Shown piece after piece: positions 544-31,041 of a stretch of DNA of 32,000 bases (position 1 is the stretch's first letter; the number at the start of each line of letters is the position of its first letter). Below the pieces are notes generated by a model, which did no database searches, had not been told where the DNA came from, and was given only the letters and a program-made list of their open reading frames with translations. Where the stretch lies: assembly GCA_016196885.1 (NCBI GenBank), contig JACPWU010000038.1, forward strand, positions 55,895 to 87,894. The letters are read 5' to 3'. The position numbers and the translations under genes are program-made. The DNA comes from Chlamydiota bacterium. GTDB taxonomy: Bacteria; Auribacterota; JACPWU01.

Positions 544-610
544 GTTATAAGTTTTAAGTTCTAAGTTTTAAAGGAGTTTATTTTTTTACTTACAACTTAC
601 AACTTCTAAC
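544..610. repeat. heptad-arm hairpin (units ATAAGTT/TTAAGTT/CTAAGTT versus ACTTACA/ACTTACA/ACTTCTA)
   Basis: About 20 of 25 arm positions pair. The loop contains GTTTTAAAGGAGTTTATTTTTTTACT. Confidence 0.75.
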
Positions 611-618
611 CGCTTTCC

Positions 619-693
619 CGGGGTGTGGCTCAGCCTGGCTAGAGCGCTTGGTTCGGGACCAAGAGGCCGGCGGTTCAAATCCGCCCACCCCGA
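619..693 (+). tRNA. tRNA-Pro (anticodon CGG)
   Basis: 75-nt cloverleaf. Acceptor CGGGGTG/CACCCCG, D stem GCTC/GAGC, anticodon stem CTTGG/CCAAG with loop TTCGGGA, T stem GGCGG/CCGCC with loop TTCAAAT, discriminator A. CCA is not encoded. Confidence 0.93.
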
Positions 694-707
694 TGGTTTT
701 TAAAAAA

Positions 708-767
708 AAGGGTCAGGGGTCATCTATGAAAACGTCTTTTTTTCCTGACCCTTGACCCTTGACCCTT
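708..767. repeat. heptad-arm hairpin (AAGGGTCAGGGGTCA versus 3x TGACCCT)
   Basis: 15-bp stem with one G-U pair and a 23-nt loop. Lies directly after tRNA-Pro and abuts the antiporter start. Confidence 0.8.
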
Positions 768-2445
768 GGATGAAAACATGCATGGCCTTCTTACCAATAT
801 TGGAACGGCGTTAATTGCAGCAACCTTGATGGGCATTCTTGCCTTTCGACTGCGGCAGCCTGTCATTTTGGGTTACTTGATCGCGGGCGCTTTTGTGGGC
901 CCTGAAATGGGTTTGAAGCTTGTCAGTGATCCCCTCAACATTGAAATCATTTCAGAAATCGGTTTGATTCTTCTTCTTTTCATCATTGGTTTGGAACTCA
1001 ATCTTCAGAAGGTCATTGCTTCTGGAAGGCAATTGCTGGTGGTTGGCATCGGCCAATTTCTTTTTTGCGTGATTTTGGGACTTTTGATTTTTCCAATGCT
1101 AGGCCTGGGACTCAAGGGTGGAAATTTAGATGGCCTTTATCTTTCTCTTCTTTGTGCGTTGAGCAGCACGGCGATTGTGGTGAAGCTCCTCTATGATAAA
1201 TTTGAACTGGATACCTTGTCGGGTCGTCTCACCTTAGGAATTCTCGTGATTCAAGATTTATGGGCGATTTTAATTTTGGCTGTTCAGCCCAATTTTGCGA
1301 ATCCACGATGGAGCCTTTTGGCACTTGCGATTTTAAAGAGTGGGGGACTTCTCGCTGCGGGTTTTATTTTGAGCCGATTTTTTTTGAAGCCTATTTATGA
1401 ATGGGTGGCGAAATCTCCCGAGATGGTGGTGGCGACCTCCATGGGCTGGTGTGCCTTGGTTTCTTATGGGGCGGGGGCCTTGGGACTTTCCAAGGAAATG
1501 GGTGCCCTTATTGCAGGAATTTCCATTTCCAGTTTTCCTTACAGTATTCATGTGACCGCCAAAACATTGCCCCTTCGCGATTTCTTTCTCACTTTATTTT
1601 TCGTCTCTTTGGGAATGAAAATTGTTGTGCCTTCCATGACGATGATTCTAGCTAGCCTAGGACTCGTCGTGTTTGTGGTCCTTTCTCGCTTTCTCACAGT
1701 GTATCCTCTTCTGATGTTCTCGGGAGGAGGGCGCCGCACTGCTTTTATCACGAGCCTCAATGTGTCTCAAGTGAGTGAGTTTTCTCTGGTCATCGCCCTT
1801 TTGGGCGTCGGCTATGGGCATCTGGGTGAAAAATTAATGGCCGTGATGATTTACACCATGGCCTTTACGGCGGTCATTTCTTCTTATGCGATTAAATTTA
1901 GCCATGAGATTTATCAGATTTTTGATTTTGTGATTAGAAAATGCGGGTGGGTGAGGAAGGTGGATGTTCAAGAAAAAGTGGAAGAAGAGAAACATTACCC
2001 CGTTGTGATTTTGGGTTTTCATCGGGGGGCGCGGTCCTTGATCGAGATGGTTCAGGAGAAAAATCCTCATTTACTTTCAGAAATGCAGGTGATTGATTTT
2101 AACCCTGAGATTTTAAAGGAATTAAAGCGCATGAACATTGCGGCTCTTTTTGGAGATATCAGCAGCCTAGACACCTTGAAACATGCGCATTTGGAGCATG
2201 CCCAGGTTATTCTCTGCACGATTCCAGACATGCTTTTAAAAGGGGTGAATAATTTGAAGCTCGTGAAATTGTGCCGCTCCCTTGCCCCCCGTGCTATTCT
2301 GGTGGCCACGGCGGATTCCTCCGTCCAGGCTGAAAAATTGAAGGCGGCCGGGGCGAGCGAAGTTTTGCTTCCCTACGTGATGACGGGGAAGTTTTTGTCG
2401 TATTTTCTGGAGGAGAATTTGGCATCTTCTGAAAAGGGAAAATGA
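766..2445 (+). CDS. cation:proton antiporter (CPA2/Kef-like) with C-terminal RCK/TrkA-N-like domain
   Basis: Long polytopic hydrophobic N-terminal region with PVILGYLIAGAFVGP near the N-terminus. Soluble C-terminal about 150 aa starts with VVILGFHRGARSL (Rossmann-like). Start is TTG 766 or ATG 778. Confidence 0.8.
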   Translation: MDENMHGLLTNIGTALIAATLMGILAFRLRQPVILGYLIAGAFVGPEMGLKLVSDPLNIEIISEIGLILLLFIIGLELNLQKVIASGRQLLVVGIGQFLFCVILGLLIFPMLGLGLKGGNLDGLYLSLLCALSSTAIVVKLLYDKFELDTLSGRLTLGILVIQDLWAILILAVQPNFANPRWSLLALAILKSGGLLAAGFILSRFFLKPIYEWVAKSPEMVVATSMGWCALVSYGAGALGLSKEMGALIAGISISSFPYSIHVTAKTLPLRDFFLTLFFVSLGMKIVVPSMTMILASLGLVVFVVLSRFLTVYPLLMFSGGGRRTAFITSLNVSQVSEFSLVIALLGVGYGHLGEKLMAVMIYTMAFTAVISSYAIKFSHEIYQIFDFVIRKCGWVRKVDVQEKVEEEKHYPVVILGFHRGARSLIEMVQEKNPHLLSEMQVIDFNPEILKELKRMNIAALFGDISSLDTLKHAHLEHAQVILCTIPDMLLKGVNNLKLVKLCRSLAPRAILVATADSSVQAEKLKAAGASEVLLPYVMTGKFLSYFLEENLASSEKGK

Positions 2446-3299: not shown

Positions 3300-3300
3300 A

Positions 3301-5136
3301 ATGGTTAAAACATCCACCCAAACTTTAAAGAATTTTAACTATCGCTGGGCTTGGCAATTTAAATCAAGTCCAGAAGAGCTTTGGCCTTTGGTTTCAGACA
3401 CCAATCGCTTCAATTTTGAAATGGGGATGCCGCCTCTTTCTAAAACTGCCTCCAATGGCAAAAGGGTTTTGAGTTTCTCTCGGTTGGGAATCAAGATGAC
3501 ATGGGAGGAAATTCCTTTTGAATGGGTTCGTCCCTACCGGTTTGGGGTGATTCGGCGGTATTGCGAAGGGCCATTGGAAGAAATGAGAATTCACATAGAG
3601 CTCCTCCCCCTTTCCAACTCTCAAGGGACAGAGATGGTCTGCCAAATTGGATTAAGTCCCAAAAGGAAAGTTCGATGGATGCTGCTGTTTCTTCCCATCG
3701 AGCAAAGAATGGGGAAGTCCTTCGAAAAAATTTTTAGAGGATATGATGTCCTTTTGATCCAGGAAAATCTTTCGTCTTCGGGTTCCACTCAAAAACCCAA
3801 ACGGGTGAAGGGGTCAGAAAAACGGCTGAACTTTTTAAAAGAAAATTTGCTGAAGGAAAATGTCTCGGCGGATTTAGTAAACCAGTTGATTAAACTGGTT
3901 GAATGGGGGGATGATTTGACGGTCCGTCGGATGAGGCCCTATGTTTTTGCAGATCATTGGCATGTTTCGAGAAAGACCGTGTTAGAGCTGTTTCTTTTGG
4001 CGACCCGGACGGGGCTTTTGGAAATGAGTTGGGATTTGCTGTGCCCGATGTGCCGAGGTTCTTCCGAAAGCCATTCTCATCTGGATGAAATCAAGACCCA
4101 TTCGCATTGCGACGGGTGTAACATGGATTTTACGATTAACTTTGACCGCCTGGTCGAATTGACATTTAAGCCGAATCCCTCGATTCGTCAGGCCGAGGGA
4201 AAATTATTTTGTTTGGGGGGACCCCAGATGACACCGCATGTGATGCTTCAGCAATCTCTTTTGCCGGGTGAAAAGCGCTCTGTCCAGGCGATGCTTGAAA
4301 AGGGGCGCTATCGGCTGAGAACGTGCAGTGTGCCCGGGGCCCAGTATTTGAACGTGGAGAAAGAGGGTGCTTCGGAAATTTTCTTCACTGCAAATTCACG
4401 CGGCTGGTCTGAGAAAGAACTGTCTTTAACCAGAGAGGCCAAAATATCACTCGAAAATCAAACCGACCGTCCTCAAACTTTTTTTCTGGAGCGGACAAAA
4501 TGGTCGGATCAGGCTGCGACAGCAGCCGAGGTGATCGCCCTTCAAAGGTTTAGGGATCTTTTTTCTGAAGAGGTTTTACGCCCCGGAGAACACGTCTCGG
4601 TCGGAAGCATCAGTATTCTTTTTACGGATTTGAAAGGTTCCACGCGTCTTTATCGAGAGGTAGGGGATGCCCCGGCCTTTGGTTTGGTCATGAATCATTT
4701 TGATGTTCTCAAAGAGGCCATCTTGGCTGAGGATGGAGCGATTGTGAAAACGATTGGAGATGCGGTGATGGCTGTTTTTAAACAGCCTTTGGGTGCCTTG
4801 AAGGCTGCGTTTGAAGCTGAAAAAAAATTGGCGTCGCCTCCCACGGGAACAAAGCCCTTGTTTTTAAAAGTGGGCCTTCATTATGGTCATGCGATTGCGA
4901 TTAATTTAAACGAGCGCTTGGATTATTTTGGCTCGACGGTGAATTTGGCCGCTCGTCTTGGAGCGCTTTCCAAGGGGCAGGATGTGATTGTTTCAGATAG
5001 CATTTATCGTGATCCCGAGGTTTCAGAATGGATTCGTTCCGAGCCTCACCTTCAGGTAGAGTCAGTCAAAGCCCTTCTCAAAGGCTTTGAAGAAGAGCAT
5101 TTTGACCTCTGGAGGGTTGCTGTAAAAAAGTCTTAA
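3301..5136 (+). CDS. adenylate/guanylate cyclase domain protein (class III) with long N-terminal sensory-like region
   Basis: C-terminal ILFTDLKGST, VKTIGDAVMAVF and GSTVNLAARL motifs of class III cyclases. The N-terminal about 420 aa includes a Cys cluster, CPMC...HCDGC. Confidence 0.85.
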   Translation: MVKTSTQTLKNFNYRWAWQFKSSPEELWPLVSDTNRFNFEMGMPPLSKTASNGKRVLSFSRLGIKMTWEEIPFEWVRPYRFGVIRRYCEGPLEEMRIHIELLPLSNSQGTEMVCQIGLSPKRKVRWMLLFLPIEQRMGKSFEKIFRGYDVLLIQENLSSSGSTQKPKRVKGSEKRLNFLKENLLKENVSADLVNQLIKLVEWGDDLTVRRMRPYVFADHWHVSRKTVLELFLLATRTGLLEMSWDLLCPMCRGSSESHSHLDEIKTHSHCDGCNMDFTINFDRLVELTFKPNPSIRQAEGKLFCLGGPQMTPHVMLQQSLLPGEKRSVQAMLEKGRYRLRTCSVPGAQYLNVEKEGASEIFFTANSRGWSEKELSLTREAKISLENQTDRPQTFFLERTKWSDQAATAAEVIALQRFRDLFSEEVLRPGEHVSVGSISILFTDLKGSTRLYREVGDAPAFGLVMNHFDVLKEAILAEDGAIVKTIGDAVMAVFKQPLGALKAAFEAEKKLASPPTGTKPLFLKVGLHYGHAIAINLNERLDYFGSTVNLAARLGALSKGQDVIVSDSIYRDPEVSEWIRSEPHLQVESVKALLKGFEEEHFDLWRVAVKKS

Positions 5137-5249: not shown

Positions 5250-5303
5250 CGTGCTTCGTACAGCGGTGTTCTTTTCGAAGTACGATGTACGAAGTTCGAT
5301 GTT
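5250..5303. repeat. heptad-periodic tract (CGTGCTT CGTACAG CGGTGTT ... CGAAGTA CGATGTA CGAAGTT CGATGTT), only weakly self-complementary
   Basis: 7-nt spacing of CG. CTTCGTAC 5254-5261 pairs with GTACGAAG 5287-5294. Confidence 0.5.
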
Positions 5304-5338: not shown

Positions 5339-5818
5339 ATGGTCGGGGAATCTTTAAGGGTGGGTGCCTTGGCGCCGGAGTTTTCTTTGTTGGATCAAGA
5401 TGAAAAGAAGGTGAGCCTGAAAGATTTTAAAGGCAAATGGGTGATTCTCTATTTTTATCCCAAGGACAATACGCCGGGCTGTACGCGGGAGGCGATTGGT
5501 TTTACAGAGGACCTCGGAGTTTTTAAAAAACTCAGCGCTGTGATTTTAGGGGTAAGCCCGGATTCTTCGCAAAGCCATTGCAATTTTATTGAATCTCAAA
5601 AGTTGAAAATTACGCTTTTGAGTGATCCCGAGCACGGTGTTTTGGAGGAATATGGCGCTTGGGGATTGAAGAAAAATTATGGCAAGGAATATTGGGGTGT
5701 GATTCGGAGCACTTTTTTAATAGATCCCAAAGGAAATCTTGCCTTCGTATGGCCGAATGTAAAAGTAGACGGGCATGTGGAGAAGGTGTTGGAGAAGTTG
5801 AAGGAATTGGGAAAGTAG
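5339..5818 (+). CDS. bcp: thioredoxin-dependent peroxiredoxin (Bcp type)
   Basis: FYPKDNTPGCTREA peroxidatic Cys motif. ATG 5339 is preceded by AAGGAGG. The track ORF start at 5285 runs through a repeat tract. Confidence 0.9.
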   Translation: MVGESLRVGALAPEFSLLDQDEKKVSLKDFKGKWVILYFYPKDNTPGCTREAIGFTEDLGVFKKLSAVILGVSPDSSQSHCNFIESQKLKITLLSDPEHGVLEEYGAWGLKKNYGKEYWGVIRSTFLIDPKGNLAFVWPNVKVDGHVEKVLEKLKELGK

Positions 5819-5886
5819 GGTCAAGGGTCAAGAGAAAGATAAATACCTTTAAACTCTTGACCCATGACCCCTGCAGCTTGACCCTT
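5818..5886. repeat. heptad-arm hairpin (GGGTCAA GGGTCAA GAG versus CTCTTGACC CATGACC ...)
   Basis: Stem 5818-5834 / 5854-5871. Loop AAAGATAAATACCTTTAAA. Same unit family as 708-767. Confidence 0.8.
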
Positions 5887-6224: not shown

Positions 6225-6950
6225 GTGCTTTATGCGGTGATTTCTGACATTCATTCAAATTTAGAGGCTTTGGAGGCGGTGCTCGCGGATGCCCGTCTTC
6301 AAGGCGCCGAGGGCTATTTGTGTTTGGGAGATATTGTAGGCTACGCCTCGGAGCCTGAGGGCTGTGTTAAACGGGTCCGGAGTTTGGGCGCTTTAGCGGT
6401 TGCCGGAAATCACGATATTGCGACTTGCGGAAAGTTAGACTTGGAAAATTTTACTCCCTATGCGAAGGCTGCGCTTCAGTGGACGATTCCTCGGGTGAGT
6501 GAAGAGGGAAAATTTTTCTTGGCGAGTTTGCCTTTGGTGATTCGCAAAGACGATTTTTGTCTGGTGCATGCCTCTTTGGATGAACCTCAAAAATGGAAAT
6601 ATATTTTTAATTTGGAAGATGCTCTTCCCAGCCTTAAGCTTTTGAAGGAAAAATTACTTTTCGTCGGTCATGCGCATCGGAACAATGTTTTTTCGTATCG
6701 TGACGGTGAGGCCCAGGAGTTGGGAGCGCAGGATTTGGCATTTTCATCAGACTGTGAATATTTGATCAGTGTGGGGAGTGTGGGACAGTCGCGGGACCGG
6801 GACCCAAGGGCTTCCTATTGTTTGTATGATTCGGCGAAGAAGGAATTGCGTTTTAGAAGGGTGGAGTACGATTTTCGCATCACACAAGAAAAGATTCTAA
6901 AGGTAGGGCTACCGCCCTTTTTGGCTTTGAGATTGGAGTTGGGCAGATAA
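6225..6950 (+). CDS. metallophosphoesterase family protein (YfcE/MJ0936-like)
   Basis: SDIHSN, GDIVGY, GNHD and GHAH metal-binding motifs. GTG start. Confidence 0.85.
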   Translation: MLYAVISDIHSNLEALEAVLADARLQGAEGYLCLGDIVGYASEPEGCVKRVRSLGALAVAGNHDIATCGKLDLENFTPYAKAALQWTIPRVSEEGKFFLASLPLVIRKDDFCLVHASLDEPQKWKYIFNLEDALPSLKLLKEKLLFVGHAHRNNVFSYRDGEAQELGAQDLAFSSDCEYLISVGSVGQSRDRDPRASYCLYDSAKKELRFRRVEYDFRITQEKILKVGLPPFLALRLELGR

Positions 6951-8360: not shown

Positions 8361-10004
8361 ATGCTTCGTCGTTTTTTGATATTTTTGATTCTGTTGAATT
8401 TTTTACCCGCCTGGGCTGAAGACCGTTTGGTCTCGATCAATTTCGAAAATGCGGATTTGCGCCTTGTGATTAAATTTGTGAGCGAGATGACGGGAGAGAA
8501 TTTTGTCGTGGATGAGGCGGTGAAGGGCTCTGTGACGGTGGTAGCGCCCAGCAAGATTTCCGTGGACGAGGTGCGTCCTGTGCTGGAATCCGTTTTGAAG
8601 GCCAGTGGTTATGTCATGGTGCCATCGGGCCCTATTACGAAGGTGGTTCCTTTGGAAACAGCCTATCAGGAAAGTACCGAAACCGTTCCTCAGGGGGGCG
8701 CTGTTTCTTTCGGGGAAAATTTTGTGACTCAAATTTTTCCGCTGAAATCGGCCGATGCCGAAAAAATGTCGGGCATTATCCATTCCTTTCTCACCCGAGG
8801 AGGATATGTCACTTTTTATGGGCCGACGAACACCCTGATTGTTTCAGACAGTGCCAGCAACATGAATCGTATTCAGCAGATTTTAAAGAATCTCGACCAG
8901 GGCCCAAGCGCCGCTTTGGAAGAGGTGTATGTGTATTCCCTCAAAAATGCGGATGTCCAGAATGTGGCCCAGGTGCTCACTCAGCTTTTTGAAAAGGAAG
9001 GGGCTTCTTCCGGAAGTGCCGAAAACAAGACCCCGTGGGTAGTGGCCGATCCCATGACGAATGCCCTTTTGATTCATGCATCGCGTGAAAAATATTTGGC
9101 AATGAAAAAGGCCATTCGAAAATTGGACGCGCCCAAGAAGCAGATTTTAGTGGAGGTGTTGGTGGCCGAGGTGAACATTGATCAGACAGAGAAAATGGGG
9201 ATTGAATGGGCGACGGTAGAGGGCGTTGTTTACGGCTCTCAGGAGGGGTTTGGTGGGGACCGGGTCCATCAATCAGATGATATTGCGCATAACGTTCTGA
9301 CGGGAGGAAAATTTGAAGGAACCTCGGCTGCCTATCTTCATGACACGCTTTCGGTTGGAACGCTCTCGATCCCTCGATTGGGAATTTTGATCAATGCCTT
9401 TCGGAATCATTCCAATATCAATATTCTCTCAACGCCTCAACTTTTGACCACGGATCATTCTGAGGCCGAAATTTTAGTGGGAGAAAACAGGGCCTTCATT
9501 AAGAATGCCCAAGTGACGCCTGAGGGAAGCACGGTTCGAACTTTTGAATTTAAAGATATTGGACTTTCTCTCAAACTGAGGCCCCATATTGCGGCCGATG
9601 GCTGGGTGCGCATGGAGGTTCAACAGAAGGTGGAAGATGTGATTGGACAATCTTTCGAGGGAGCCGTGGAGACCTCGAAGCGAGAGGCGAGGACCCTCAT
9701 CACCGTGAAAGATTCTCAAACGGCTGTGATTGGGGGATTGATCCGTGAACGCAAGGACAAGGTCATTCACAAAGTTCCAATTTTGGGGGATATCCCTCTT
9801 TTAGGCCTTCCCTTTACGCGCATTGCAAATGAGACTGTGAAAACGAATCTCCTCATTTTTATTTGTCCGCATATTTTGGATTCTGAGCAAGCCATTTCAC
9901 AGATGACAGAGAAGAAGCGGGCGCAGGCTGGAATGACGTTGGAAAAGCAGAAGACAGAGGACAGAATTCAGAATTCAGAAGGCAGAATCCAGAATAAAAA
10001 CTAA
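8361..10004 (+). CDS. gspD: secretin (type II secretion system protein D family)
   Basis: Signal peptide. N0 domain INFENADLRLVIKFVSEMTGENFVV. Secretin core ILSTPQLLTTDHSEAEILVG ... VPILGDIPLLGLPF. Confidence 0.85.
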   Translation: MLRRFLIFLILLNFLPAWAEDRLVSINFENADLRLVIKFVSEMTGENFVVDEAVKGSVTVVAPSKISVDEVRPVLESVLKASGYVMVPSGPITKVVPLETAYQESTETVPQGGAVSFGENFVTQIFPLKSADAEKMSGIIHSFLTRGGYVTFYGPTNTLIVSDSASNMNRIQQILKNLDQGPSAALEEVYVYSLKNADVQNVAQVLTQLFEKEGASSGSAENKTPWVVADPMTNALLIHASREKYLAMKKAIRKLDAPKKQILVEVLVAEVNIDQTEKMGIEWATVEGVVYGSQEGFGGDRVHQSDDIAHNVLTGGKFEGTSAAYLHDTLSVGTLSIPRLGILINAFRNHSNINILSTPQLLTTDHSEAEILVGENRAFIKNAQVTPEGSTVRTFEFKDIGLSLKLRPHIAADGWVRMEVQQKVEDVIGQSFEGAVETSKREARTLITVKDSQTAVIGGLIRERKDKVIHKVPILGDIPLLGLPFTRIANETVKTNLLIFICPHILDSEQAISQMTEKKRAQAGMTLEKQKTEDRIQNSEGRIQNKN

Positions 10005-10058
10005 AATTCATTATTATTTGCTTTTATTCTGAATTCTGACTTCTGTCTTCTGAATTCT
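9948..10058. repeat. heptad-arm hairpin (7x AANNCAG-type units versus CTGAATT CTGACTT CTGTCTT CTGAATT)
   Basis: The left arm lies inside the gspD 3' end. The stop TAA 10002-10004 lies in the loop. Same unit family as 29649-29728. Confidence 0.8.
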
Positions 10059-11519: not shown

Positions 11520-11527
11520 ATCTAAGA

Positions 11528-11672
11528 GGGGCCTGTCCCTCCTCACCCCCACCGTCGGCACATGTAGTTATAGCCCCTGTGGGGTCGGTGTCGGGCGTGC
11601 GATAGATGGGAGCATTGGAATCTAGGCCTCCACCTGCTGGCGCACGGTGGGGAACCCCCAGTCGGGCCACCC
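11528..11672. repeat. modular GC-rich intergenic repeat, copy B
   Basis: See copy A. Also shares the 16-nt ATAGCCCCTGTGGGGT with 15255-15270. Ends 25 nt before ATG 11698. Confidence 0.75.
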
Positions 11673-11697
11673 TCTTATATGAGGAAAAGGAGGTCGT

Positions 11698-12164: not shown

Positions 12165-13904
12165 ATGCGGGAAGCATCCACGCTTGAAAAAATTTGGAAG
12201 GTGAAACCTGTTCCGGATCCGGCGCTCTTTCTCCCGCTGTCTGAAATTCTAAAAATCTCTCCCTCTGTTTCAAAGCTCCTCATCCAGCGCGGGATTAAAA
12301 CGATTGAAGAGGCACAATCTTTTACCGCCTGTCGTCTCAAGGATTTATCGGACCCTTATCTCTTTGAAGGCATGGATAGGGCGGTAGCGAGGATTTTGAA
12401 GGCCTTGCAAGGCAAGGAAAAAATTCTGGTGCATGGAGATTATGATGTGGACGGGATTACAGGAACATCCCTGCTCTGTGATGTTTTTCGAAGAGCGGGT
12501 CTTCAAGCGGAGCCCTATATTCCGGATCGTGTGAATGAAGGATATGGCGTGAGCCGAGGGGCCATTGAGAAATCCTTGAGGGAAAATTTTCGACTGATGA
12601 TTACGGTAGATTGCGGCGGCACGGCTTTTGAAGAAATAGATGAAGCGACGAGCCGAGCCTTAGATGTCATTGTGGTGGATCATCATGAGTTGAAAGAAAA
12701 ACTTCCGTCCTGTCTGGCATTGATTCATCCGAGGCGAATGGTGGGCTCAGCAAAATCTTCGCCTTTGGCCGCTGTCGGCGTGGCTTTTAAATTGGCTCAT
12801 GGTCTTGTGAAGGAAGGTTTAAAGCGCGGAGAATCCTGGGCCTCCAAGATGGACTTAAGAGATTTTCTGGATCGTGTGGCCATTGGGACCCTTGCCGATC
12901 TTGTTCCTTTAAGGGGTGAGAATAGAATTTTTGTGAAACAAGGATTAGAAAGGCTTTCTCAAACAAAATGTATGGGGCTTGCGGCATTGCTCGAAAAAAT
13001 TGGAATGGTAGGAAAAGAGCTTACCCCCGTGGACATTGGATTTAAAATTGCACCTCGCATGAATGCGGCGGGCCGCGTAGGGACGGCTTATGACACGGTG
13101 AATTTGCTTCTCTCTCAAAGCAAAGAAGAGGTAGAATACTTGGCTGAGAGTTTGGATGAAAACAATAAAAAAAGGCAATGGATTGAGCAGCAAACGTACG
13201 AAGAGGCCGTTCGTCTTTTGGAAACTCAAGCCTCTCGTGGAGAGGATTGGGTTGTGGTTCTTCATCAAGATGAGTGGCCCTTAGGGGTGATTGGCATTGT
13301 GGCCTCCAGAATCGTGAAATTGTGTCATCGTCCCACCTTTATTATTTCTTCGGATGACACCTTAGGCAAAGGATCGGCTCGAAGCATTCGGGGTTTTCAT
13401 TTGTGCGAGGCCTTGAAGGTTTGTGAAAATTCTCTGGAGGGATATGGCGGCCATGCCTATGCCGCCGGCATTAAAATTAAGAAAGAAAAAATTTCAGAGT
13501 TTCGTAAAGCGATCAACGATCATGCCCAAAAAATTCTGGCTCCGGAAGATTTTCTCCCGAGCCTTGAGGCCGATTTAGAAATTCCTTTGAGTGAGATCTC
13601 TTTAAAATTGGCTCAAGAAATTGAAAGAATAGGTCCTTTTGGTCAGGAAAATCCTTCTCCACTTTTTATCAGTCGGGATCTCGAATTAGCGCGACCTGCC
13701 CAAGGGGTGGGGAAAAATCATCTCAAATTGTGGTTGAGGCAAGACGGATCCATGCTAGAGGCCATGGCCTTTGGCATGGGGGATTTGCTTCCTCAATTTT
13801 CCAATCGCTCGGGCCCTTTTCATGCGGCCTATGAAATTGTGATGAACTATTATGGCGGAGAAAAAAAGGTGCAGCTGAATGTAAGGGATTTGAAGTTTTC
13901 TTAG
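12165..13904 (+). CDS. recJ: single-stranded-DNA-specific exonuclease RecJ
   Basis: DHH motifs (HGDYDVDGITG, VDHH) and DHHA1 GGHAYAAG. ATG 12165 follows GAGAAGGA. Confidence 0.9.
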   Translation: MREASTLEKIWKVKPVPDPALFLPLSEILKISPSVSKLLIQRGIKTIEEAQSFTACRLKDLSDPYLFEGMDRAVARILKALQGKEKILVHGDYDVDGITGTSLLCDVFRRAGLQAEPYIPDRVNEGYGVSRGAIEKSLRENFRLMITVDCGGTAFEEIDEATSRALDVIVVDHHELKEKLPSCLALIHPRRMVGSAKSSPLAAVGVAFKLAHGLVKEGLKRGESWASKMDLRDFLDRVAIGTLADLVPLRGENRIFVKQGLERLSQTKCMGLAALLEKIGMVGKELTPVDIGFKIAPRMNAAGRVGTAYDTVNLLLSQSKEEVEYLAESLDENNKKRQWIEQQTYEEAVRLLETQASRGEDWVVVLHQDEWPLGVIGIVASRIVKLCHRPTFIISSDDTLGKGSARSIRGFHLCEALKVCENSLEGYGGHAYAAGIKIKKEKISEFRKAINDHAQKILAPEDFLPSLEADLEIPLSEISLKLAQEIERIGPFGQENPSPLFISRDLELARPAQGVGKNHLKLWLRQDGSMLEAMAFGMGDLLPQFSNRSGPFHAAYEIVMNYYGGEKKVQLNVRDLKFS

Positions 13905-13920: not shown

Positions 13921-14020
13921 AATGACAAATGACCTATTCCAAATGTCAAATGAACGACCCATGACTTAATGTCCAATTGAACATTGGCTCATTGGAAATT
14001 AATTTGACATCGGTTATTGG
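13921..14020. repeat. heptad-periodic tract (AATGACA AATGACC TATTCCA AATGTCA AATGAAC) with partial inverted partner
   Basis: ATGTCAAAT 13943-13951 pairs with ATTTGACAT 14002-14010. Local palindrome CCAATtgaacATTGG. Confidence 0.45.
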
Positions 14021-15208: not shown

Positions 15209-15215
15209 CCCGCAC

Positions 15216-15387
15216 TTCTCATCATCACCTGTCATTCCCGCAGGCTTCAACGAAATAGCCCCTGTGGGGTAAGCGGGAATCCAGGGTTTTACACTCACTC
15301 TGGATCCCCGACAAAACATGTCCCCGAGTGTTTGAGTCGGGGAACACTCGGGGATGACAAGCTGTAGGCATTTTGAGCTCGTGATGA
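15216..15387. repeat. composite of GC-rich palindromic units (REP-like)
   Basis: ATTCCCGC 15234-41 / GCGGGAAT 15273-80. CCCCtgtGGGG 15259-69. Perfect 12-bp stem TCCCCGAGTGTT 15321-32 / AACACTCGGGGA 15343-54. The outer TTCTCATCA..C / GTGATGAGAA are inverted. Confidence 0.7.
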
Positions 15388-15514
15388 GAAACATTCATGC
15401 CGACTGAGGTCGGCACAAAGGGGGATGAAAATCACCCTTGTAGTCGCCCCATTTATGGGGCGGTCTATGACATTGTGGCATTGGGCATTGCCCGATAAAT
15501 CGGGCGACTACAAG
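15388..15514. repeat. 127-nt structured repeat, copy 1
   Basis: 125/127 identical to 31868-31994. Contains hairpins TGCCGACtgagGTCGGCA, CGCCCCAtttaTGGGGCG and GCCCGAtaaaTCGGGC, enclosed by CTTGTAGTCG / CGACTACAAG. Confidence 0.9.
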
Positions 15515-15781
15515 TCATCATGAGTCATTGTATAAGAAAGAGTAAAGACTATTTTCAGATGAAATGCGGTTTAAAGCTATATTTCAAACACGGAATTGTT
15601 CAACGCCTACTTTAAAATTTTCTTGGCATATCCAGAAATGTCGTTTTTGAGAAGCCATGGGAGAGTGACAGAACAATCCAAAACAAATTTCACGGACGCC
15701 CTTCTCCCATTAGTTTTCGAGTAGATAAATCAGAGCATTTTTTTTGGGTAATGAGTTAGAAACTAAAAGCGAAGGCCTGCC

Positions 15782-16074: not shown

Positions 16075-16170
16075 CGATAATCAGTCGTTCGATAATCAGT
16101 CGTTCGTCGTCTGTCGTTCGTCGCTCGTACGAAATACGAACGACGGACGACGAACGACGAATGACGAATG
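16075..16170. repeat. 15-nt tandem duplication followed by heptad-arm hairpin (CGTTCGT-type versus ACGAACG-type units)
   Basis: CGATAATCAGTCGTT x2 at 16075-16104. About 25 of 33 arm positions pair, around loop CGAAA. Lies between the divergent rpmB and recG starts. Confidence 0.8.
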
Positions 16171-16181
16171 AAGGGATTTAA

Positions 16182-18284: not shown

Positions 18285-18836
18285 ATGAGAATCATCGCGG
18301 GGCTTGCCAAGGGCCGTCTTTTCAAAACAGTGCCGGGTTTGGACGTGAGACCTACGGCCGATCGGGTGAGGGAATCCATCTTTAATATTTTAGGCCCGCG
18401 AATGGAGGGCTCACGCGTCCTGGACCTTTTTGCGGGATCTGGAGCCTTGGGGTTGGAATCTCTTTCTCGCGGCGCTTCCTCGGCCATTTTTATTGAAAAG
18501 TCGAAACGGGCTGCGAGAGTCATTGAAAAAAATATTGTGGATCTCGGATTTGAAAGTGCTCGCGTCATGACCCTAGATGTTTTTCGCTCTATGAGTATTC
18601 TCTCGAAGAAGGAAGAAAGATTTGATTTCGTTTTTGCAGATCCTCCCTATCGTTTGTTTGATGAATCCTGGATTTTCGAGGTATGGAAGGTTGTTCAATC
18701 GCTTTTGGAGAGGGAGGGAATTTTTATTCTTGAACATCCCTCTCGTTGGACACCCCCTCAAAAGGTGGGGAATCTTGTGCTGAAAGATTCTAGGAAATAT
18801 GGACAAACACAAATAAGTTTCTTTACTCATTTTTAA
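18285..18836 (+). CDS. rsmD: 16S rRNA (guanine966-N2)-methyltransferase
   Basis: RPTADRVRESIFNIL, DLFAGSGALGLESLSRGA and ADPPY motifs. Confidence 0.88.
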   Translation: MRIIAGLAKGRLFKTVPGLDVRPTADRVRESIFNILGPRMEGSRVLDLFAGSGALGLESLSRGASSAIFIEKSKRAARVIEKNIVDLGFESARVMTLDVFRSMSILSKKEERFDFVFADPPYRLFDESWIFEVWKVVQSLLEREGIFILEHPSRWTPPQKVGNLVLKDSRKYGQTQISFFTHF

Positions 18837-19380: not shown

Positions 19381-19908
19381 ATGAAAGTGTATGTGGACCG
19401 TATTCCAGAGGAAGGTCTTCTACTGGAAGGTGAAGAATCTGGGGAAATCGTGGATATGGGAGAAGGCCATGAAAAGTTCTCAGAAAATATTCTCGTCCGC
19501 CTTCATGTTTATAAAGTCTCTGGAAAATTAATTGTGACGGGAAGCCTTTCGACCCATGCCCTTCTTTCTTGTGGGCGGTGCCTGGAGGTATTTTCCTATC
19601 TTATTGATAATAAGAAGTTTACGTATGACTGTGACATTGAGGGTAGAGACATAATTGACTTGACAGAGCCCGTTCGGGAAGATATTATCATCGGCCTACC
19701 TGTCAGGCCCTTGTGTCGAGAAGGTTGTAGAGGCCTTTGCAATCGTTGTGGACAGAATTTGAATGTAAAAAAATGCAAATGCGATTTTCGAACACCTTTT
19801 TCAGCTGGGCCCTTTGATGTTTTGGATGATTTGCTGGAAAAGAAAAATTTAAAAATCAAAAATCAAATATCAAAATTAAGGAAAAAAAGTAAGAATCTTG
19901 ATAAATAA
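19381..19908 (+). CDS. DUF177/YceD family protein
   Basis: Canonical position upstream of rpmF. CxxC ... CREGCRGLCNRCGQNLN. The K-rich C-terminal tail is encoded by a repeat arm. Confidence 0.8.
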   Translation: MKVYVDRIPEEGLLLEGEESGEIVDMGEGHEKFSENILVRLHVYKVSGKLIVTGSLSTHALLSCGRCLEVFSYLIDNKKFTYDCDIEGRDIIDLTEPVREDIIIGLPVRPLCREGCRGLCNRCGQNLNVKKCKCDFRTPFSAGPFDVLDDLLEKKNLKIKNQISKLRKKSKNLDK

Positions 19909-19950
19909 ACTCACTTATTTTACATTTTGATTTTTGGATTTTGATATTGG
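19851..19950. repeat. heptad-arm hairpin (AAATCAA units versus TTTGATT units)
   Basis: The left arm lies inside the DUF177 3' end. The stop codon lies in the 47-nt loop. Confidence 0.65.
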
Positions 19951-20181: not shown

Positions 20182-20188
20182 ATTCTGT

Positions 20189-20246
20189 CGTTCGTGACTC
20201 GTCGTTCGTTGTTCGTGTTTCGACGAGATACGAACAACAATCAACG
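20189..20246. repeat. heptad-arm hairpin (CGTGACT CGTCGTT CGTTGTT CGTGTTT versus ACGAACAACAATCAACG)
   Basis: About 18 of 23 positions pair. Same unit family as 16097-16170. Lies between rpmF and plsX. Confidence 0.7.
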
Positions 20247-20255
20247 GGGTTTTAA

Positions 20256-22256: not shown

Positions 22257-22396
22257 ATGTGAAATTCGAAATCCGAAATTCGAAGCACGAAATAAATTCA
22301 AAATTCGAATATTTAAAATATCAAAACGTTTAGAATTTTGAATTTGAGTTTTCAAATTTGTTTCGAATTTCGTGCTTCGGATTTCGAATTTCGCAT
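22257..22396. repeat. 140-nt extended heptad-arm hairpin between fabH and fabD
   Basis: The outer arms are near-perfect complements, apart from one extra GAAATTC unit in the left arm. Inner stem ATTCAAAATTC / GAATTTTGAAT. Confidence 0.85.
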
Positions 22397-22431: not shown

Positions 22432-23391
22432 ATGCAAAGGCATGTTTTTCTTTTCCCCGGTCAAGGTGCCCAATATGTTGGTATGGGACGAGATCTTTTT
22501 GAAAGGTATGAGGCTGTTCGTCGTATTTTTGCTCAGGCCAGTGAAATCCTAAAAGAAGATTTGACTAAAATTTGTTTTGAAGGGCCTGAGGAGACGCTTA
22601 CTTCGACCCGTATTTGTCAGAGCGCTATTTTTACCGTCAGTTTCGCTTGTTTAGAAGCTTTAAAGGTAGAGTGTCCTCACCTTGTTCCTGAGGCCGTCGC
22701 AGGTTTGAGTCTGGGGGAATTTACTGCGCTCACGGTCGCGGGCTCTCTCACTTTTGAAGAGGGGCTTCGCTTGGTTCAGGCGAGGGGTCGATTGATGCAG
22801 GAGGCGTGCCTTGAAAAAAAAGGGATCATGGCCTCGATTTTGGGGTTGGAGTATGAGAAGGTGAAAGAGATTTGTTCTCGCATTCAAGATGCAGTGGTCA
22901 CCGTGGCCAATGTCAATTCTGACCAACAGGTGGTGGTGAGCGGTGATCCCCAGGGGGTCGAAAAGGCTCTTGAGGAGGCGAAGAAGAGAGGGGCCCGCAG
23001 AGCTATTCTGCTTCAGGTGAGCGGGGCCTTTCATTCTCCTCTCATGCAGTCTGCCCGAGAAAAATTAGAAAAATTTTTGGAACATTTTGAGATTCGTCCT
23101 CCACAGAAAATTTTTATTTCCAATGTGAAGGGGGAAGGCGTCGAAGATCCTCAAGAAATTCGTAAGCTTTTGGTTGCTCAAGTGACAGACCCTGTTCTTT
23201 GGAGTCAAGGAATTCAATATTTAATTCAAAAAGGTTTCAGTTCCTTTATCGAGGTGGGATGTGGTAGAGTTCTTTCCGGTCTTCAAAAAAAGATTGCACC
23301 GGATACGAAAATTCTCAATGTCGATGGTGTGGAGAGTCTAGAGAAAATGAAAAAGATAGTGGAAAGTGAAGAATGTAAAATGAAGAATTAA
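22432..23391 (+). CDS. fabD: ACP S-malonyltransferase
   Basis: FPGQGAQYVGMG, GLSLGEF (active Ser) and SGAFHSPLM motifs. Confidence 0.93.
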   Translation: MQRHVFLFPGQGAQYVGMGRDLFERYEAVRRIFAQASEILKEDLTKICFEGPEETLTSTRICQSAIFTVSFACLEALKVECPHLVPEAVAGLSLGEFTALTVAGSLTFEEGLRLVQARGRLMQEACLEKKGIMASILGLEYEKVKEICSRIQDAVVTVANVNSDQQVVVSGDPQGVEKALEEAKKRGARRAILLQVSGAFHSPLMQSAREKLEKFLEHFEIRPPQKIFISNVKGEGVEDPQEIRKLLVAQVTDPVLWSQGIQYLIQKGFSSFIEVGCGRVLSGLQKKIAPDTKILNVDGVESLEKMKKIVESEECKMKN

Positions 23392-23436
23392 AAACAGTGG
23401 ACATTTTTAATTTTGCACTTTTCATTTTTCATTGCT
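23365..23436. repeat. heptad-arm hairpin (AGTGAAG AATGTAA AATGAAG AATTAAA versus TTTTTAA TTTTGCA CTTTTCA TTTTTCA)
   Basis: About 23 of 32 positions pair. The left arm encodes the last residues of FabD. Confidence 0.6.
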
Positions 23437-23455
23437 TTTAGAAAGGAGTAAATCA

Positions 23456-24055
23456 ATGTTGCTTTCAGGTAAAAATGCGCTTGTGACCGGTGCGGCCCAA
23501 GGGATTGGCAAGGCCATTTCTCTGACCTTTGCAAAGGAAGGTGCGAATGTGGCTGTCTGCGATATGAATGAGGCTGTGGGCCAAGAGACGGTTCAAGAGA
23601 TTAGAGCGTTGGGGCAAAAAGCGGAATTTTATAAAGTGGACGTGTCTCGTTTTGAGGAAGTGAAAGAGGTGACGGACAAAGTCCTTGACAATTTTTCGAC
23701 CATTGATATACTCGTGAACAATGCTGGCATTACCCGGGACACACTTCTCATCCGGATGGAAGAAAAGGATTGGGATCTTGTCCTCAATGTTAACCTGAAG
23801 GGGACATTTAATTTCACAAAAGCGGTTGCACGATCGATGGTGAAGAATCGAACGGGCCGGGTGGTGAACATCGCTTCTGTGATTGGTCTCATAGGAAATG
23901 TGGGTCAAGCCAACTACGCAGCCTCGAAGGCAGGGGTTATTGCGTTAACGAAGTCGGTGGCCAAAGAGCTTGCTTCTCGTGGAATTACCGTCAATGCAGT
24001 TGCTCCGGGCTTTATTCAAACTGCCATGACGGATAAACTGCCCCGAAGAGATTAA
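23456..24055 (+). CDS. fabG: 3-oxoacyl-ACP reductase FabG; N-terminal about 200 aa as encoded, terminated early by a frameshift
   Basis: [15 protein letters not shown] and YAASKAG motifs. The frame ends DKLPRRD* just after a CCCC run at 24041-24044. Confidence 0.85.
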
Positions 24056-24465: not shown

Positions 24466-24487
24466 TTGAGACGTTTTTGGGTTTAAT

Positions 24488-24540
24488 AAGGGCATTCCCC
24501 TCTTTTTCTGACAGAATAGATAAGGGAGTGCCCTTTTTGT
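24488..24540 (+). terminator. candidate intrinsic terminator/attenuator after acpP
   Basis: AAGGGCATTCCC (24488-24499) pairs with GGGAGTGCCCTT (24524-24535) with one mismatch, followed by a TTTTT tract. The loop is large, about 24 nt. Confidence 0.5.
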
Positions 24541-24564
24541 TTATACAAGGAAACCTAAAAAACT

Positions 24565-25809: not shown

Positions 25810-25813
25810 CTTT

Positions 25814-26487: not shown

Positions 26488-26494
26488 AAAAAAT

Positions 26495-26503: not shown

Positions 26504-26523
26504 GAATTTTGGGAGAATGGAAT

Positions 26524-27288: not shown

Positions 27289-27305
27289 TAGATTGTACCT
27301 TATTT

Positions 27306-27347
27306 ACGAAGCACGCTTTACGTTGCACGCCTTACGGTTTTTACGTT
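27306..27347. repeat. six tandem heptads (ACGAAGC ACGCTTT ACGTTGC ACGCCTT ACGGTTT TTACGTT) with no inverted partner
   Basis: Strict 7-nt spacing of ACG, in the spacer between the two fabI genes. Confidence 0.6.
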
Positions 27348-28111: not shown

Positions 28112-28158
28112 TGTGAAGGTAAGTATTGCCTTTTGGATAAAAGGAGTCAACGGAAAAA

Positions 28159-28234
28159 CGGTCGTGAGTCGTGAGGAATGAGTCGTGAGTAAAAATAATA
28201 CCTTTAAAACTCACGACTCATCCCTCACGACTGT
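28159..28234. repeat. heptad-arm hairpin (GTCGTGA units versus TCACGAC units)
   Basis: About 23 of 26 positions pair. Loop AAAAATAATACCTTTAAA is homologous to the loops at 5835-5853 and 571-587. Confidence 0.85.
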
Positions 28235-28244
28235 TTTCTAAATA

Positions 28245-29627: not shown

Positions 29628-29648
29628 AGAGATCTCTTTCCTTTAATT

Positions 29649-29728
29649 AGAATTCAGAATACAGAATTCAGAAGTCAGAATCAATAAGGTTCTTTATTTA
29701 TTCTGCCTTCTGCCTTCTGCCTTCTGCC
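29649..29728. repeat. heptad-arm hairpin (AATTCAG AATACAG AATTCAG AAGTCAG AATCAAT versus 4x perfect TTCTGCC)
   Basis: About 22 of 26 positions pair. Lies between the divergent starts at 29627 (minus) and 29807 (plus). Confidence 0.8.
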
Positions 29729-29806
29729 CTTCCCCCCTTGAATTTTTTTTCGGATGTGTTAAAATAAAGGTAGCAGCGGATGCAATCCGATAATGAAAGG
29801 TTCAAC

Positions 29807-30964
29807 ATGCTGAATTATTTTCTAACGGATGAGCAGAAAGAGATTAGGGCTTTAGCCCGCCAAGTTGCCGAAGAAAAAATTGTCCCCATTCGAGAAAAAT
29901 ATGACCGCAGCGGCGAATTCGCCTGGGAAATGGTGAAGGTCTTTGCCGAAACAGGTCTCACCTCGGTTTACATTCCTCAAGAATATGGAGGGATGGGCGG
30001 TGGTCTTTTGGAATTGGTTTTGGTGGTGGAAGAGTTGAGCCGTGCTTGTGGGGCCATTGCCCTGAGCATCGCCGCCACAGGTTTGGGCGCCTATCCCATC
30101 ATCCTGTTTGGAAGTCCAGAACAAAAGAAAAAATATCTTCCTGACATTGCCTCGGGAAAAAAACTCGCCGCTTTTTCTATTACAGAACCCAGTTCGGGAA
30201 GTGACATTGGTTTTATTGCCACCCGTGCAGAAAAAAAGGGAGATCATTACATTATCAATGGGAATAAACAATGGGTGACCAATGGGGGCGAGGCGGAAAT
30301 TTATACGGTGATTGTAGCCAATGATCTTTCCAAGGGGCCCAGAGGGATCTCTGCCTTTATTGTTGAGAAAGGATTTGAGGGGTTTAGTTTTGGAAAGAAG
30401 GAAGACAAAATGGGCATTCGGTCTTCAGCCACACGGACTCTGATCTTCGAAGACTGCAAAGTTCCTGCAGAAAATTTATTGGGAAAGGAAGGCCGAGGTT
30501 TTGTGATTGCCCTCAAGAATTTCGACCATGGCCGGCCAGGGGTCGCAGCTCAAGCCGTCGGAATTGCACAAGGGGCTTTGGATGTTGCGACACGTTATGC
30601 CAAGGATCGAAAACAATTTGGGAAACCTATTGCCTCTTTTCAGGCGATTCAAATCATGTTAGCAGACATGGCGACCCAGATTGAGGCGGCTCGGGCGCTG
30701 ACCTATGCCGTAGCAAGAGCTTTTGAGGTGTCGGAGGTGGGGGAGCGTTTTACGAAAGAGGCGGCCATGACCAAACTTTTCGCATCAGACATGGCCATGA
30801 AAGTGACCACCGATGCCCTTCAGATTCTGGGGGGATATGGCTACATGAAAGATTACCCGGTTGAGAAAATGATGCGGGATGCAAAGATTACCCAAATTTA
30901 TGAAGGGACCAATCAAATTCAGCGCAACATGATCGCGGCAAGTCTGTTAAAAGAATACGTTTGA
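29807..30964 (+). CDS. acyl-CoA dehydrogenase (short/butyryl-CoA dehydrogenase-like)
   Basis: FSITEPSSGSD, QWVTNG and a catalytic-base region YEGTNQIQR. ATG 29807 follows GAAAGG. Confidence 0.9.
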   Translation: MLNYFLTDEQKEIRALARQVAEEKIVPIREKYDRSGEFAWEMVKVFAETGLTSVYIPQEYGGMGGGLLELVLVVEELSRACGAIALSIAATGLGAYPIILFGSPEQKKKYLPDIASGKKLAAFSITEPSSGSDIGFIATRAEKKGDHYIINGNKQWVTNGGEAEIYTVIVANDLSKGPRGISAFIVEKGFEGFSFGKKEDKMGIRSSATRTLIFEDCKVPAENLLGKEGRGFVIALKNFDHGRPGVAAQAVGIAQGALDVATRYAKDRKQFGKPIASFQAIQIMLADMATQIEAARALTYAVARAFEVSEVGERFTKEAAMTKLFASDMAMKVTTDALQILGGYGYMKDYPVEKMMRDAKITQIYEGTNQIQRNMIAASLLKEYV

Positions 30965-30966
30965 AA

Positions 30967-31041
30967 AATGTGCCAATGTGCCAATGATAAAATGTACCTT
31001 ATTTCATCGGTACATTGGCACATTGGCACATCGGCACAGTG
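30967..31041. repeat. octad-arm hairpin (AATGTGCC units versus GCACATTG units)
   Basis: Perfect 19-bp stem 30968-30986 / 31013-31031, plus an inner ATGTACC / GGTACAT pairing. Confidence 0.85.

Follow-up and report, generated by a model that had tools for sequence, protein, structure and literature searches.

A 32,000-nucleotide (nt) stretch of DNA from a groundwater metagenome-assembled genome (MAG), which NCBI protein records label "Chlamydiae bacterium" (contig JACPWU010000038.1, positions 55,895 to 87,894; hereafter the window), carries 15 spacer elements built from tandem 7-nt units, most of them arranged as two inverted arms that can fold into a hairpin. The occurrence of these heptamer-arm hairpins in the spacers is confirmed here. 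With a probability of about 0.5, we interpret them as self-expanding and dispersing palindromic heptamer microsatellites, i.e. non-essential repeat DNA that was amplified in this lineage and survives only in spacers. The elements add up to 1,141 nt, or 3.6% of the window, and are listed individually in Table 1.

Tandem Repeats Finder (TRF) reported period 7 at 13 of the 15 sites named in an initial annotation of the window; the remaining two gave a period of 14 (27303-27336) and of 8 (30967-31038). Repeat tracts are thus present at all 15 sites; the periodicity, which the initial annotation had called strict, amounts to 65-100% matches. Stretches with at least 23 of 28 matches were found at 32 positions for lag 7 (29 intergenic, 3 coding) and at five for lag 8; lags 3-6 and 9-12 gave no such stretch, nor did any of 200 shuffled versions of the intergenic sequence. 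Autocorrelation of the intergenic DNA peaks at lags 7, 14 and 21 (0.345, 0.325 and 0.297), and that of coding DNA is flat at about 0.25. The peaks are confined to intergenic DNA.

Eleven elements form strong hairpins, with z-scores of -3.5 to -9.8 and only 0-1 of 200 dinucleotide shuffles equally stable; three others (tracts 13921, 19851 and 20189) fold weakly (z -1.65 to -2.05). Inverted pairs are present in 12-13 of the 15 elements, with stems of 17-57 bp, and the arms are also found by an inverted-repeat search, in many cases in more than one register at 7-nt offsets. The earlier count of at least 11 sites with an inverted partner tract is borne out. The consensus of one arm is the exact reverse complement of its partner (7/7 or 8/8) in 7 of 14 elements, and agrees at 5-6 of 7 positions in the rest.

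At least 10 unrelated unit sequences occur within the 32 kb (AGTTTTA, GGGTCAA, CAGAATN, GTCGTTC, AAAATCA, GAAATTC, AATGAAA, GTCGTGA and others), and the unit differs at nearly every site. The recurrences noted earlier hold, namely GGGTCAA at 708 and 5818, CAGAATN at 9948 and 29649, and GTCGTTC at 16097 and 20189. Variant units are mirrored across both arms at 22257 (GAAATCC and GAAGCAC) and, by direct reading, at 28159, which indicates that the arms share a history as inverted copies. The arms are also homogenised independently of each other: an arm at 29649 is 100% homogeneous yet differs from its partner at 2 of 7 positions, and arm 2 at 708 is likewise fully homogeneous. According to TRF, the arrays contain higher-order periods of 14, 15 and 21 nt. 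Perfect 15-nt direct duplications lie directly 5' of two arrays, at 521-550 (AAAGAATAGTTATAA, two copies) and 16075-16106 (CGATAATCAGTCGTT, two copies); these are possibly recent multi-unit slippage events.

Of the 20 spacers that measure 50 nt or more, 15 hold an element, and all 12 shorter spacers are empty. This gives 15 of 32 junctions overall, so that the earlier statement that they separate nearly every gene was too strong. Eleven of the 15 lie between co-directional protein-coding genes, two flank tRNA-Pro, and two are located between divergent genes. Most have their first base no farther than about 20 nt from a stop codon, or slightly inside it, and leave 7-48 nt to the start codon that follows. 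The placement first described, from 0-20 nt after the stop to 10-50 nt before the start, accordingly applies to most elements, and the presence of hairpins inside the fab and etf operons is confirmed; four arms begin 4, 40, 57 and 65 nt inside the upstream open reading frame (ORF). The heptamer array at 19844-19908 encodes a lysine-rich C-terminal tail of 20-23 residues in YceD (EKKNLKIKNQISKLRKKSKNLDK) that is missing in 5 of 5 orthologues, and the ORFs of the secretin (9948-10004) and FabD (23352-23391) terminate within arrays, with FabD slightly extended. In most of the co-directional hairpins checked by direct reading, the Shine-Dalgarno sequence lies outside the hairpin or at its edge. 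To judge from their position, most elements are inside operons and must therefore be transcribed.

Through FabD homologues, five loci with conserved synteny were identified: L083 (GCA_964640155.1), L085 (Logan SRR22387960), L086 (GCA_016178055.1, also labelled "Chlamydiae bacterium" by NCBI), and L091 and L092 (both Logan). Together with the window these represent six genomes, which are about 65-70% identical at the amino acid level in PlsX, FabH, FabD and RecG (78% between L083 and L085). The counts of strict period-7 tracts are 10 for the window, 14 for L086 (in 21 kb), 2 for L083 and 3 for L085; the spacers of L091 and L092 showed no heptamer element, and no tracts at periods 5, 6 or 9-11 were present in the window, L083, L085 or L086. 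Two of the six genomes are thus rich in elements, two are sparse, and two are without them. The occupied spacers coincide only partly among the genomes, and the units differ where both are occupied. For example, L086 has a hairpin in a 167-nt spacer between rsmD and coaD, where the window has 21 nt, and the 179 nt that separate fabH from fabD in the window correspond to 0 nt in L083, L091 and L092. Between rpmB and recG the unit is GTCGTTC in the window vs AAAATCN in L086, and between fabD and fabG it is AAAATGA vs AATTGAG. Only the closest pair, L083 and L085, has the same unit type at an orthologous spacer. Operon junctions without an element measure 0-25 nt. These differences in occupied spacers and units, together with the short empty junctions, indicate that the elements are dispensable insertions or expansions with rapid turnover. 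In L086, the spacer from acd to etfB (16643-16800) consists of three tandem 50-nt copies, each with a TTTTGGA/TTTTTGA heptamer array, as a further higher-order repeat.

Whole elements have been dispersed in L086. The elements at 3440-3580 and 18576-18720 share 86% identity over 125 nt, covering the arms and a non-repetitive loop, and those at 6345-6470 and 12195-12295 share 87% over 82 nt, with one arm of 6345-6470 longer by about three units. Both pairs are in opposite orientation, in different spacers and 6-15 kb apart. In the window, elements 5815 and 28161 have a common 12-nt loop core and related arms. Loop-core 10-mers or longer are shared by 11 pairs of elements, within and between genomes, vs 2.2 expected and a maximum of 8 in 300 shuffles, a positive but modest signal. 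An A+T-rich loop core (approximately TTTTAAAGGARTTnTTTATTTT, in either orientation; Table 1) is common to elements with different arms, both within and between genomes, and a 14-mer is common to the loop of the window element at 544 and L083. An nhmmer profile of eight loop cores had no match among the controls, and in the loci of the clade it recovered just its own training sequences; with a motif this short, A+T-rich and low in complexity, the profile is no independent test.

No sign of structural selection was detected in the paralogous copies. When the fold of one paralogue was imposed on the other, the substitutions break 5-7 pairs and keep 2-4, with the same result on either strand, which is close to the neutral expectation, and no compensatory change is seen. 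RNAalifold applied to the same pairs gave only pair-preserving changes, a result rejected as an artefact of a consensus structure that is built from both sequences. Over the window as a whole the two strands are similarly stable (sense -378 vs antisense -361 kcal/mol). None of the 15 elements is among the terminator-like sites of an intrinsic terminator scan, whose site counts are not above those of shuffles, and a promoter consensus scan showed no enrichment. Only element 28161 is followed by a clear T-run (T5 on the transcribed strand, by direct reading). No element matches an Rfam covariance model at the gathering threshold. By comparison, the spacer between acpP and fabF (24466-24564) contains a G+C-rich hairpin (GGGCATTCCCC...GGGAGTGCCC) followed by TTTTT, whose sequence is conserved in all six syntenic genomes and which is a predicted canonical terminator or attenuator. 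Thus, ordinary terminators exist in this lineage and evolve quite differently from the heptamer hairpins.

Unrelated bacteria served as controls (160 loci, 1.91 Mb; L001-L080 and L093-L172). They came from a FabH search of genome contigs, which found no close relative (best 59% identity), and from a FabD-alignment search of metagenome contigs, with 39-48% relatives among the matches listed. With an inverted partner defined by 16 or more matches in 21 nt, no farther than 110 nt away, a partner accompanies 16 of 25 control tracts of period 7, 0 of 37 of period 5 and 2 of 23 of period 6. The paired period-7 tracts fold as heptamer-arm hairpins, and in L003 and L064, where ORFs were checked, they start just after a stop codon; examples come from Bacillota, Opitutaceae, Binatia, Verrucomicrobiia and a deltaproteobacterium. 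The density of period-7 tracts per 10 kb is 0.13 in the controls, 3.1 in the window and 6.7 in L086. The coupling of only period-7 arrays to inverted partners suggests that the question should be restated as why bacterial hairpins grow in 7-nt steps. In L003, a Bacillota MAG, the elements at 8860-8990 and 13680-13825 have different arms (AGAGGTT vs CAGAAGN) but an identical small palindromic core in the loop, GGAATTCGCGnAGCGAATTCC, and the CAGAANN unit of window elements 9948 and 29649 is also that of the second. Two more contigs, L120 and L150, are likewise rich in heptamers. Plasmid alpha of Nostoc PCC 7120 (50 kb) has three direct arrays, none of the three with a partner. One array on this plasmid (L090 4141-4192) is made of TTCTGCC, which also forms four perfect copies at 29701-29728 of the window; this is probably a coincidence.

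Our interpretation envisages that each arm grows, shrinks and homogenises through replication slippage, by 7 nt or sometimes by 14 or 21 nt at a time, and that the arms would stay roughly complementary as inverted copies of one array and not by pair-by-pair selection. Inverted copies would probably arise by inverted duplication or intramolecular template switching. Whole elements would occasionally be copied to other spacers in either orientation, and selection would remove copies that disrupt ORFs or bury ribosome-binding sites, so that the remaining ones take up the room from a stop codon to the following Shine-Dalgarno sequence. Once transcribed, the elements would fold into long imperfect stem-loops within operons. 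Like REP elements (REP, repetitive extragenic palindromic sequence) and other intercistronic stem-loops, these could serve as 3'-exonuclease barriers or RNase III substrates, as a by-product and not as the reason for their existence. Stem-loops inside operons probably affect mRNA decay or processing, and the evidence does not make this effect their raison d'être. Slippage, template switching and any effect on RNA are what we infer, whereas the anatomy, the restriction to spacers, the turnover between relatives, the independent homogenisation of arms, the dispersed paralogues and the absence of compensatory change are observed. Slippage within arms is supported by homogeneous arms that differ from their partners, by the higher-order periods, and by the arm that is about three units longer in one L086 copy.

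Several points weigh against this interpretation. The window has no whole-element paralogues, only shared unit types, so that dispersal is seen only in the relative L086, where no target-site duplications are evident flanking the paralogous copies and empty sites are not alignable at 65-70% amino acid identity. No transposase was identified, and no REP-associated tyrosine transposase (RAYT) is present within the window. The test for compensatory change comprises two paralogue pairs only, and the sharing of loop k-mers hints at a constant module. The Shine-Dalgarno sequences are left clear, or nearly so, in most of the co-directional hairpins checked, and hence some selection acts on placement. 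G.U pairs in the window number 39 in the sense and 20 in the antisense orientation, which would fit a role in RNA; this excess was rejected as decisive evidence in view of the G+T-rich composition of the plus strand and the insufficient number of elements between minus-strand genes. Hairpins from other phyla in L004, L050 and L064 are more stable in the sense orientation by 11-21 kcal/mol, and others are not. Finally, the model leaves the number 7, and the restriction of hairpin coupling to period 7, unaccounted for, which could point to a specific machinery or function.

The alternative closest to the initial annotation is that the hairpins are adaptive RNA punctuation, selected as exonuclease barriers, RNase III sites, or terminators or attenuators without a U-tract, with the 7-nt period reflecting how the stem is constructed. 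RNase III needs roughly 20 bp of stem, a length that several of the stems exceed. The position between stop and start in mainly co-directional spacers and next to tRNA-Pro, with the Shine-Dalgarno sequence free, fits such a role, as do the sense G.U excess in the window and the strong sense bias of the Opitutaceae and Bacillota examples (L050 and L064; 6-7 G.U pairs sense vs 0). The Xanthomonas heptamer repeats, too, are mostly transcribed and lie about 28 nt after the upstream ORF (PMC4692102). However, the same operon junctions in relatives work with 0-25 nt and no hairpin, some elements separate divergent genes, both orientations are represented, and arms intrude into ORFs. Moreover, paralogue substitutions mostly break pairs without strand preference, the strands are similarly stable, the G.U excess is confounded by strand composition, and T-runs and other terminator features are lacking in most elements (28161 excepted). 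The punctuation signal first proposed therefore does not agree well with these data, and we consider it unlikely. A broader version is distinctly unlikely: a pan-bacterial class in which the 7-nt period is tied mechanistically to the hairpin by conserved machinery (a palindrome-specific polymerase or template-switch process, or a factor reading about 7 nt), amplified here as RNase III or exonuclease punctuation at half of the cistron boundaries. If true, it would give a concrete handle on the dominance of heptamers in prokaryotic intergenic DNA.

We likewise doubt a purely local origin, in which each element was built in place, without any copying, by slippage at a small hairpin that was already there (an old terminator, for instance) and shared units reflect A+T-driven convergence. 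Such an origin would agree with the similarity between window loci, which is at the unit level only, with units that differ at nearly every site, with the local homogenisation and higher-order duplications in the arrays, and with the sporadic heptamer-arm hairpins after stop codons in many phyla, but it cannot explain the two L086 pairs, whose identity extends through non-repetitive loops in opposite orientation, and is at odds with the core common to 5815 and 28161 and with the recurrence of loop cores across genomes. Alternatively, the heptamer could be the site of a protein that reads about 7 nt, such as a cold-shock-domain or nucleoid protein, which the hairpin could titrate. The 7-nt specificity of the coupling across phyla speaks for such binding-site arrays, and so do the binding of one CspB per heptamer (PMC4679880) and the heptamer-binding partner postulated in Nostoc (bioRxiv 10.1101/2022.06.06.494920). 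Because at least 10 unrelated units occur in 32 kb, any binder would have to be sequence-blind; in addition, no candidate gene was identified and the elements are dispensable in relatives, which makes this explanation highly improbable. An assembly or sequencing artefact deserves almost no credence. In its favour are the MAG origin of the sequence, the tendency of contigs to end at repeats (as L082 does within element 22257) and one probable base-calling error in the window (see below). Against it, the NCBI MAG and independently made Logan assemblies agree in sequence, the latter matching the window at 100% across elements 708, 5250 and 5818 and a portion of 22257; elements of this type are found in relatives from other projects and samples; and the elements are restricted to spacers and have a regular anatomy.

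With approximately one element per 2 kb, roughly 25-50 times the measured background, and many unit types together, the lineage is an extreme natural case. Its syntenic relatives, which range from rich to empty, offer a comparative system for separating a mutational origin from a function at the RNA level. In practical terms, the elements inflate spacers, extend ORFs and break assemblies, and would confuse predictors of terminators and small RNAs.

Table 1. Heptamer elements, loop cores and genes of the window. Element coordinates are window positions; dG is in kcal/mol; z is relative to dinucleotide shuffles; complementarity is that of the arm consensuses; strand is given as "." for all 15 elements. 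T2SS, type II secretion system; T4P, type IV pilus; SDR, short-chain dehydrogenase/reductase.
Feature	Position	Arms or units	dG	z	Complementarity	Remarks
Heptamer-arm hairpin, pcm-like ORF / tRNA-Pro	543..610	AGTTTTA ×4.1 + ACTTACA ×3.3	-15.7	-3.5	6/7	loop AGGAGTTTATTTTTTT
Heptamer-arm hairpin, tRNA-Pro / Na+/H+ exchanger	709..768	GGGTCAN ×2 + TGACCCT ×3.3	-27.7	-3.9	7/7	TGACCCT arm 100% homogeneous
Hairpin 5' of bcp	5250..5302	short arm 1; arm 2 CGAAGTA/CGATGTA ×3.9	-20.8	-3.5	5/7	14-nt higher-order repeat in arm 2
Heptamer-arm hairpin	5815..5886	AGGGTCA, TTGACCC	-32.6	-6.4	7/7	begins 4 nt inside bcp stop region; loop AATACCTTTAAA also in element 28161
Heptamer-arm hairpin	9948..10058	arm 1 CAGAANN ×7; arm 2 ATTCTGA ×4.7	-46.4	-7.8		arm 1 within last 57 nt of secretin ORF; three registers in inverted-repeat search
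Degenerate heptamer element, recJ / T2SS-F gene	13921..14020	AATGACA-like		-2.05		weak hairpin; 49-58% to arm consensus, 65% by TRF
Heptamer-arm hairpin, divergent rpmB / recG	16075..16171	GTCGTTC, ACGAACG	-51.5	-6.1	7/7	perfect 15-nt direct duplication precedes arms
Heptamer element	19844..19950	AAAAATC, GATTTTN		-1.95		weak hairpin; arm 1 codes YceD tail
Heptamer element, rpmF / plsX	20187..20248	GTCGTTC-type	-23.8	-1.65	5/7	modest hairpin
Largest element (140 nt), fabH / fabD	22257..22396	GAAATTC-type arms	-54.9	-8.25		
Heptamer-arm hairpin	23344..23438	AAAATGA + CATTTTT	-25.0	-4.9		arm 1 overlaps last 40 nt of fabD
Tandem 14-nt (2 × 7) array, two minus-strand SDR genes	27303..27347			+0.59		no inverted partner; no hairpin
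Heptamer-arm hairpin between minus-strand genes	28161..28234	GTCGTGA + TCACGAC	-44.1	-9.8		
Heptamer-arm hairpin between divergent genes	29645..29728	arm 1 variable AGAATNC; arm 2 TTCTGCC ×4	-27.6	-5.0	5/7	arm 2 100% identity; per unit 5 bp + 2×2 mismatch
8-nt case, acd / etfB	30967..31041	AATGTGCC ×2.5 + ACATTGGC ×3.4	-38.6	-6.7	8/8	
A+T-rich loop core	window 567-578, 5842-5853, 28197-28208; L086 6384-6408, 12234-12258; L083 16902-16995					L083 interval is the SDR1>SDR2 spacer
pcm-like ORF						5'-most; cut at window start
tRNA-Pro	619-693					sole Rfam match reaching gathering score
Na+/H+ exchanger, dapF, adenylate cyclase, bcp, acyP, metallophosphoesterase, two unknown ORFs						in order after tRNA-Pro
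Secretin, T2SS/T4P ATPase, unknown ORF, recJ, T2SS-F gene						next in order
rpmB						minus strand; next in order
recG, rsmD, coaD, yceD, rpmF, plsX, fabH, fabD, fabG, acpP, fabF						in order after rpmB
Four minus-strand genes, then acd, etfB						3' part of window

The gene map is based on Pfam scans and the gene calls on record. The window has a G+C content of 46%, and its plus strand shows a positive GC skew. It is matched by the public contig JACOUD010000018.1 (MAG GCA_016178005.1), with two differences. At 24041-24044 the window reads CCCC and the public contig CCC; the extra C frameshifts fabG, so that the ORF in the window ends after about 198 codons where the public contig encodes a normal FabG of 246 residues, and it is probably a sequencing or assembly error. 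After 31871 the two sequences diverge within another repeat family, directly preceded by the motif AACTCCCCCAACCCCTCTTTGTTATGAAA (31839-31872). The spacer from etfB to etfA in the public contig is 388 nt (L088 10784-11171) and is bounded by TAACTCCCCCAACCCCTC ... [quoted passage not shown] The divergence at 31872 points to a strain or assembly difference at a putative mobile element.

A separate family in the same window consists of GTAG-type REP doublets at 15388-15520 and 31868-32000, a 133-nt repeat with 97% identity between copies. Its GTAG-tagged REP-like palindromes are CTTGTAGTCGCCCCATTTATGGGGC / GCCCGATAAATCGGGCGACTACAAG, and the same repeat is located at the extreme end of JACOUD010000018.1. 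As judged from its sequence, this repeat is a second family beside the heptamer hairpins, of the classical REP/REPIN type. The spacers at 11520-11697 and 15209-15300 are G+C-rich and strongly structured without heptamers, and have the motif AGCCCCTGTGGGGT in common; L088 holds the related AGTCCCTGTGGGA.

Heptanucleotides are the most abundant class of long simple-sequence repeats in many genomes, and polymerase slippage has been proposed for their origin (PMC4679880, PMC4692102). Mori et al. report that no intergenic tandem repeat is more abundant than tandem heptamers in a broad spectrum of prokaryotes, and see "no clear clue" as to their function (bioRxiv 10.1101/309039). In the literature, no description of such elements was found for Chlamydiae or genomes of the Planctomycetes-Verrucomicrobia-Chlamydiae group, and no instance of many different unit sequences at the density of the window. 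Readings of the hairpins as CRISPR arrays or mobile cassettes were ruled out by their anatomy and the conserved synteny of housekeeping genes. Integron attC sites were rejected as well: the flanking housekeeping genes (fab, rpmF, recG, etf) are in conserved order in the six syntenic genomes, and the window contains no integrase.

The elements resemble REP/REPIN sequences (GTAG-tagged REPs, PMC3733652; REPINs, PMC3116915) and MITE-type palindromes such as Correia elements, in that all are extragenic imperfect palindromes. Further similarities are their occurrence in either orientation, the dispersed copies (seen in L086) and co-transcription with flanking genes, here deduced from position. REP stem-loops are known to stabilise mRNA. 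In contrast to the near-identical families of REP and MITE sequences, with defined termini and an associated transposase, the heptamer elements vary in sequence between sites, their arms are tandem-repetitive, and they have no conserved GTAG or CGTC tag. L086 has two two-copy families at 86-87% identity, compared with the unit-level similarity in the window.

The analogy drawn in the initial annotation with the STRR (short tandemly repeated repetitive) sequences of heterocystous cyanobacteria is apt, insofar as both are intergenic, consist of tandem 7-nt units and comprise several unit types per genome, and its view that the source is not cyanobacterial agrees with the NCBI name. STRRs differ in being mostly single direct arrays, compared with 12-13 inverted pairs among 15 elements in the window. 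The canonical STRR1-3 units match none of the window units. In Nostoc only "a few paired repeats" are reported (PMC4692102), and regulatory effects of the heptamers, for which the partner mentioned above is postulated, have been described (bioRxiv 10.1101/2022.06.06.494920). The TAACTGA repeats of marine Beggiatoaceae (MacGregor 2015) are likewise abundant intergenic heptamers near gene boundaries with a patchy phylogeny and a proposed post-transcriptional role, and CspB, which binds heptanucleotide units, has been raised in connection with them (PMC4679880). They consist of a single unit in direct, oriented arrays immediately upstream of start codons, with one inverted case in 170 sets (PMC4679880), unlike the inverted pairs and many units of the window.

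The nearest counterpart is found in Xanthomonas, where Rehm et al. (2015) described 70-75 GGGAATC arrays with convergent inverted pairs downstream of ORFs (PMC4692102), so that a hairpin-forming version of the heptamer repeats had in fact already been reported; the initial annotation knew of none that separates nearly every gene. The Xanthomonas arrays lie on average 28 nt after the upstream ORF, and their length varies between species and among close relatives, although single repeats stay single and paired ones paired (PMC4692102). As in the window, two convergent heptamer arrays are close together in intergenic DNA, nearer to the upstream ORF, and stem-loops or cruciforms are possible. The Xanthomonas repeats have one G-rich unit, studied for G-quadruplexes, and number approximately 185 arrays per 5-Mb genome. 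The window, in contrast, has mostly A+T-rich units of at least 10 kinds without G-quadruplex potential, lacks any GGGAATC or (GGGANTN)n unit, and has some arms in ORF ends, with whole-element copies in the relative L086. Tandem heptamers and inverted heptamer pairs are therefore known, and the new aspect of this lineage, as far as its sequences indicate, would be their density and the many unit types.

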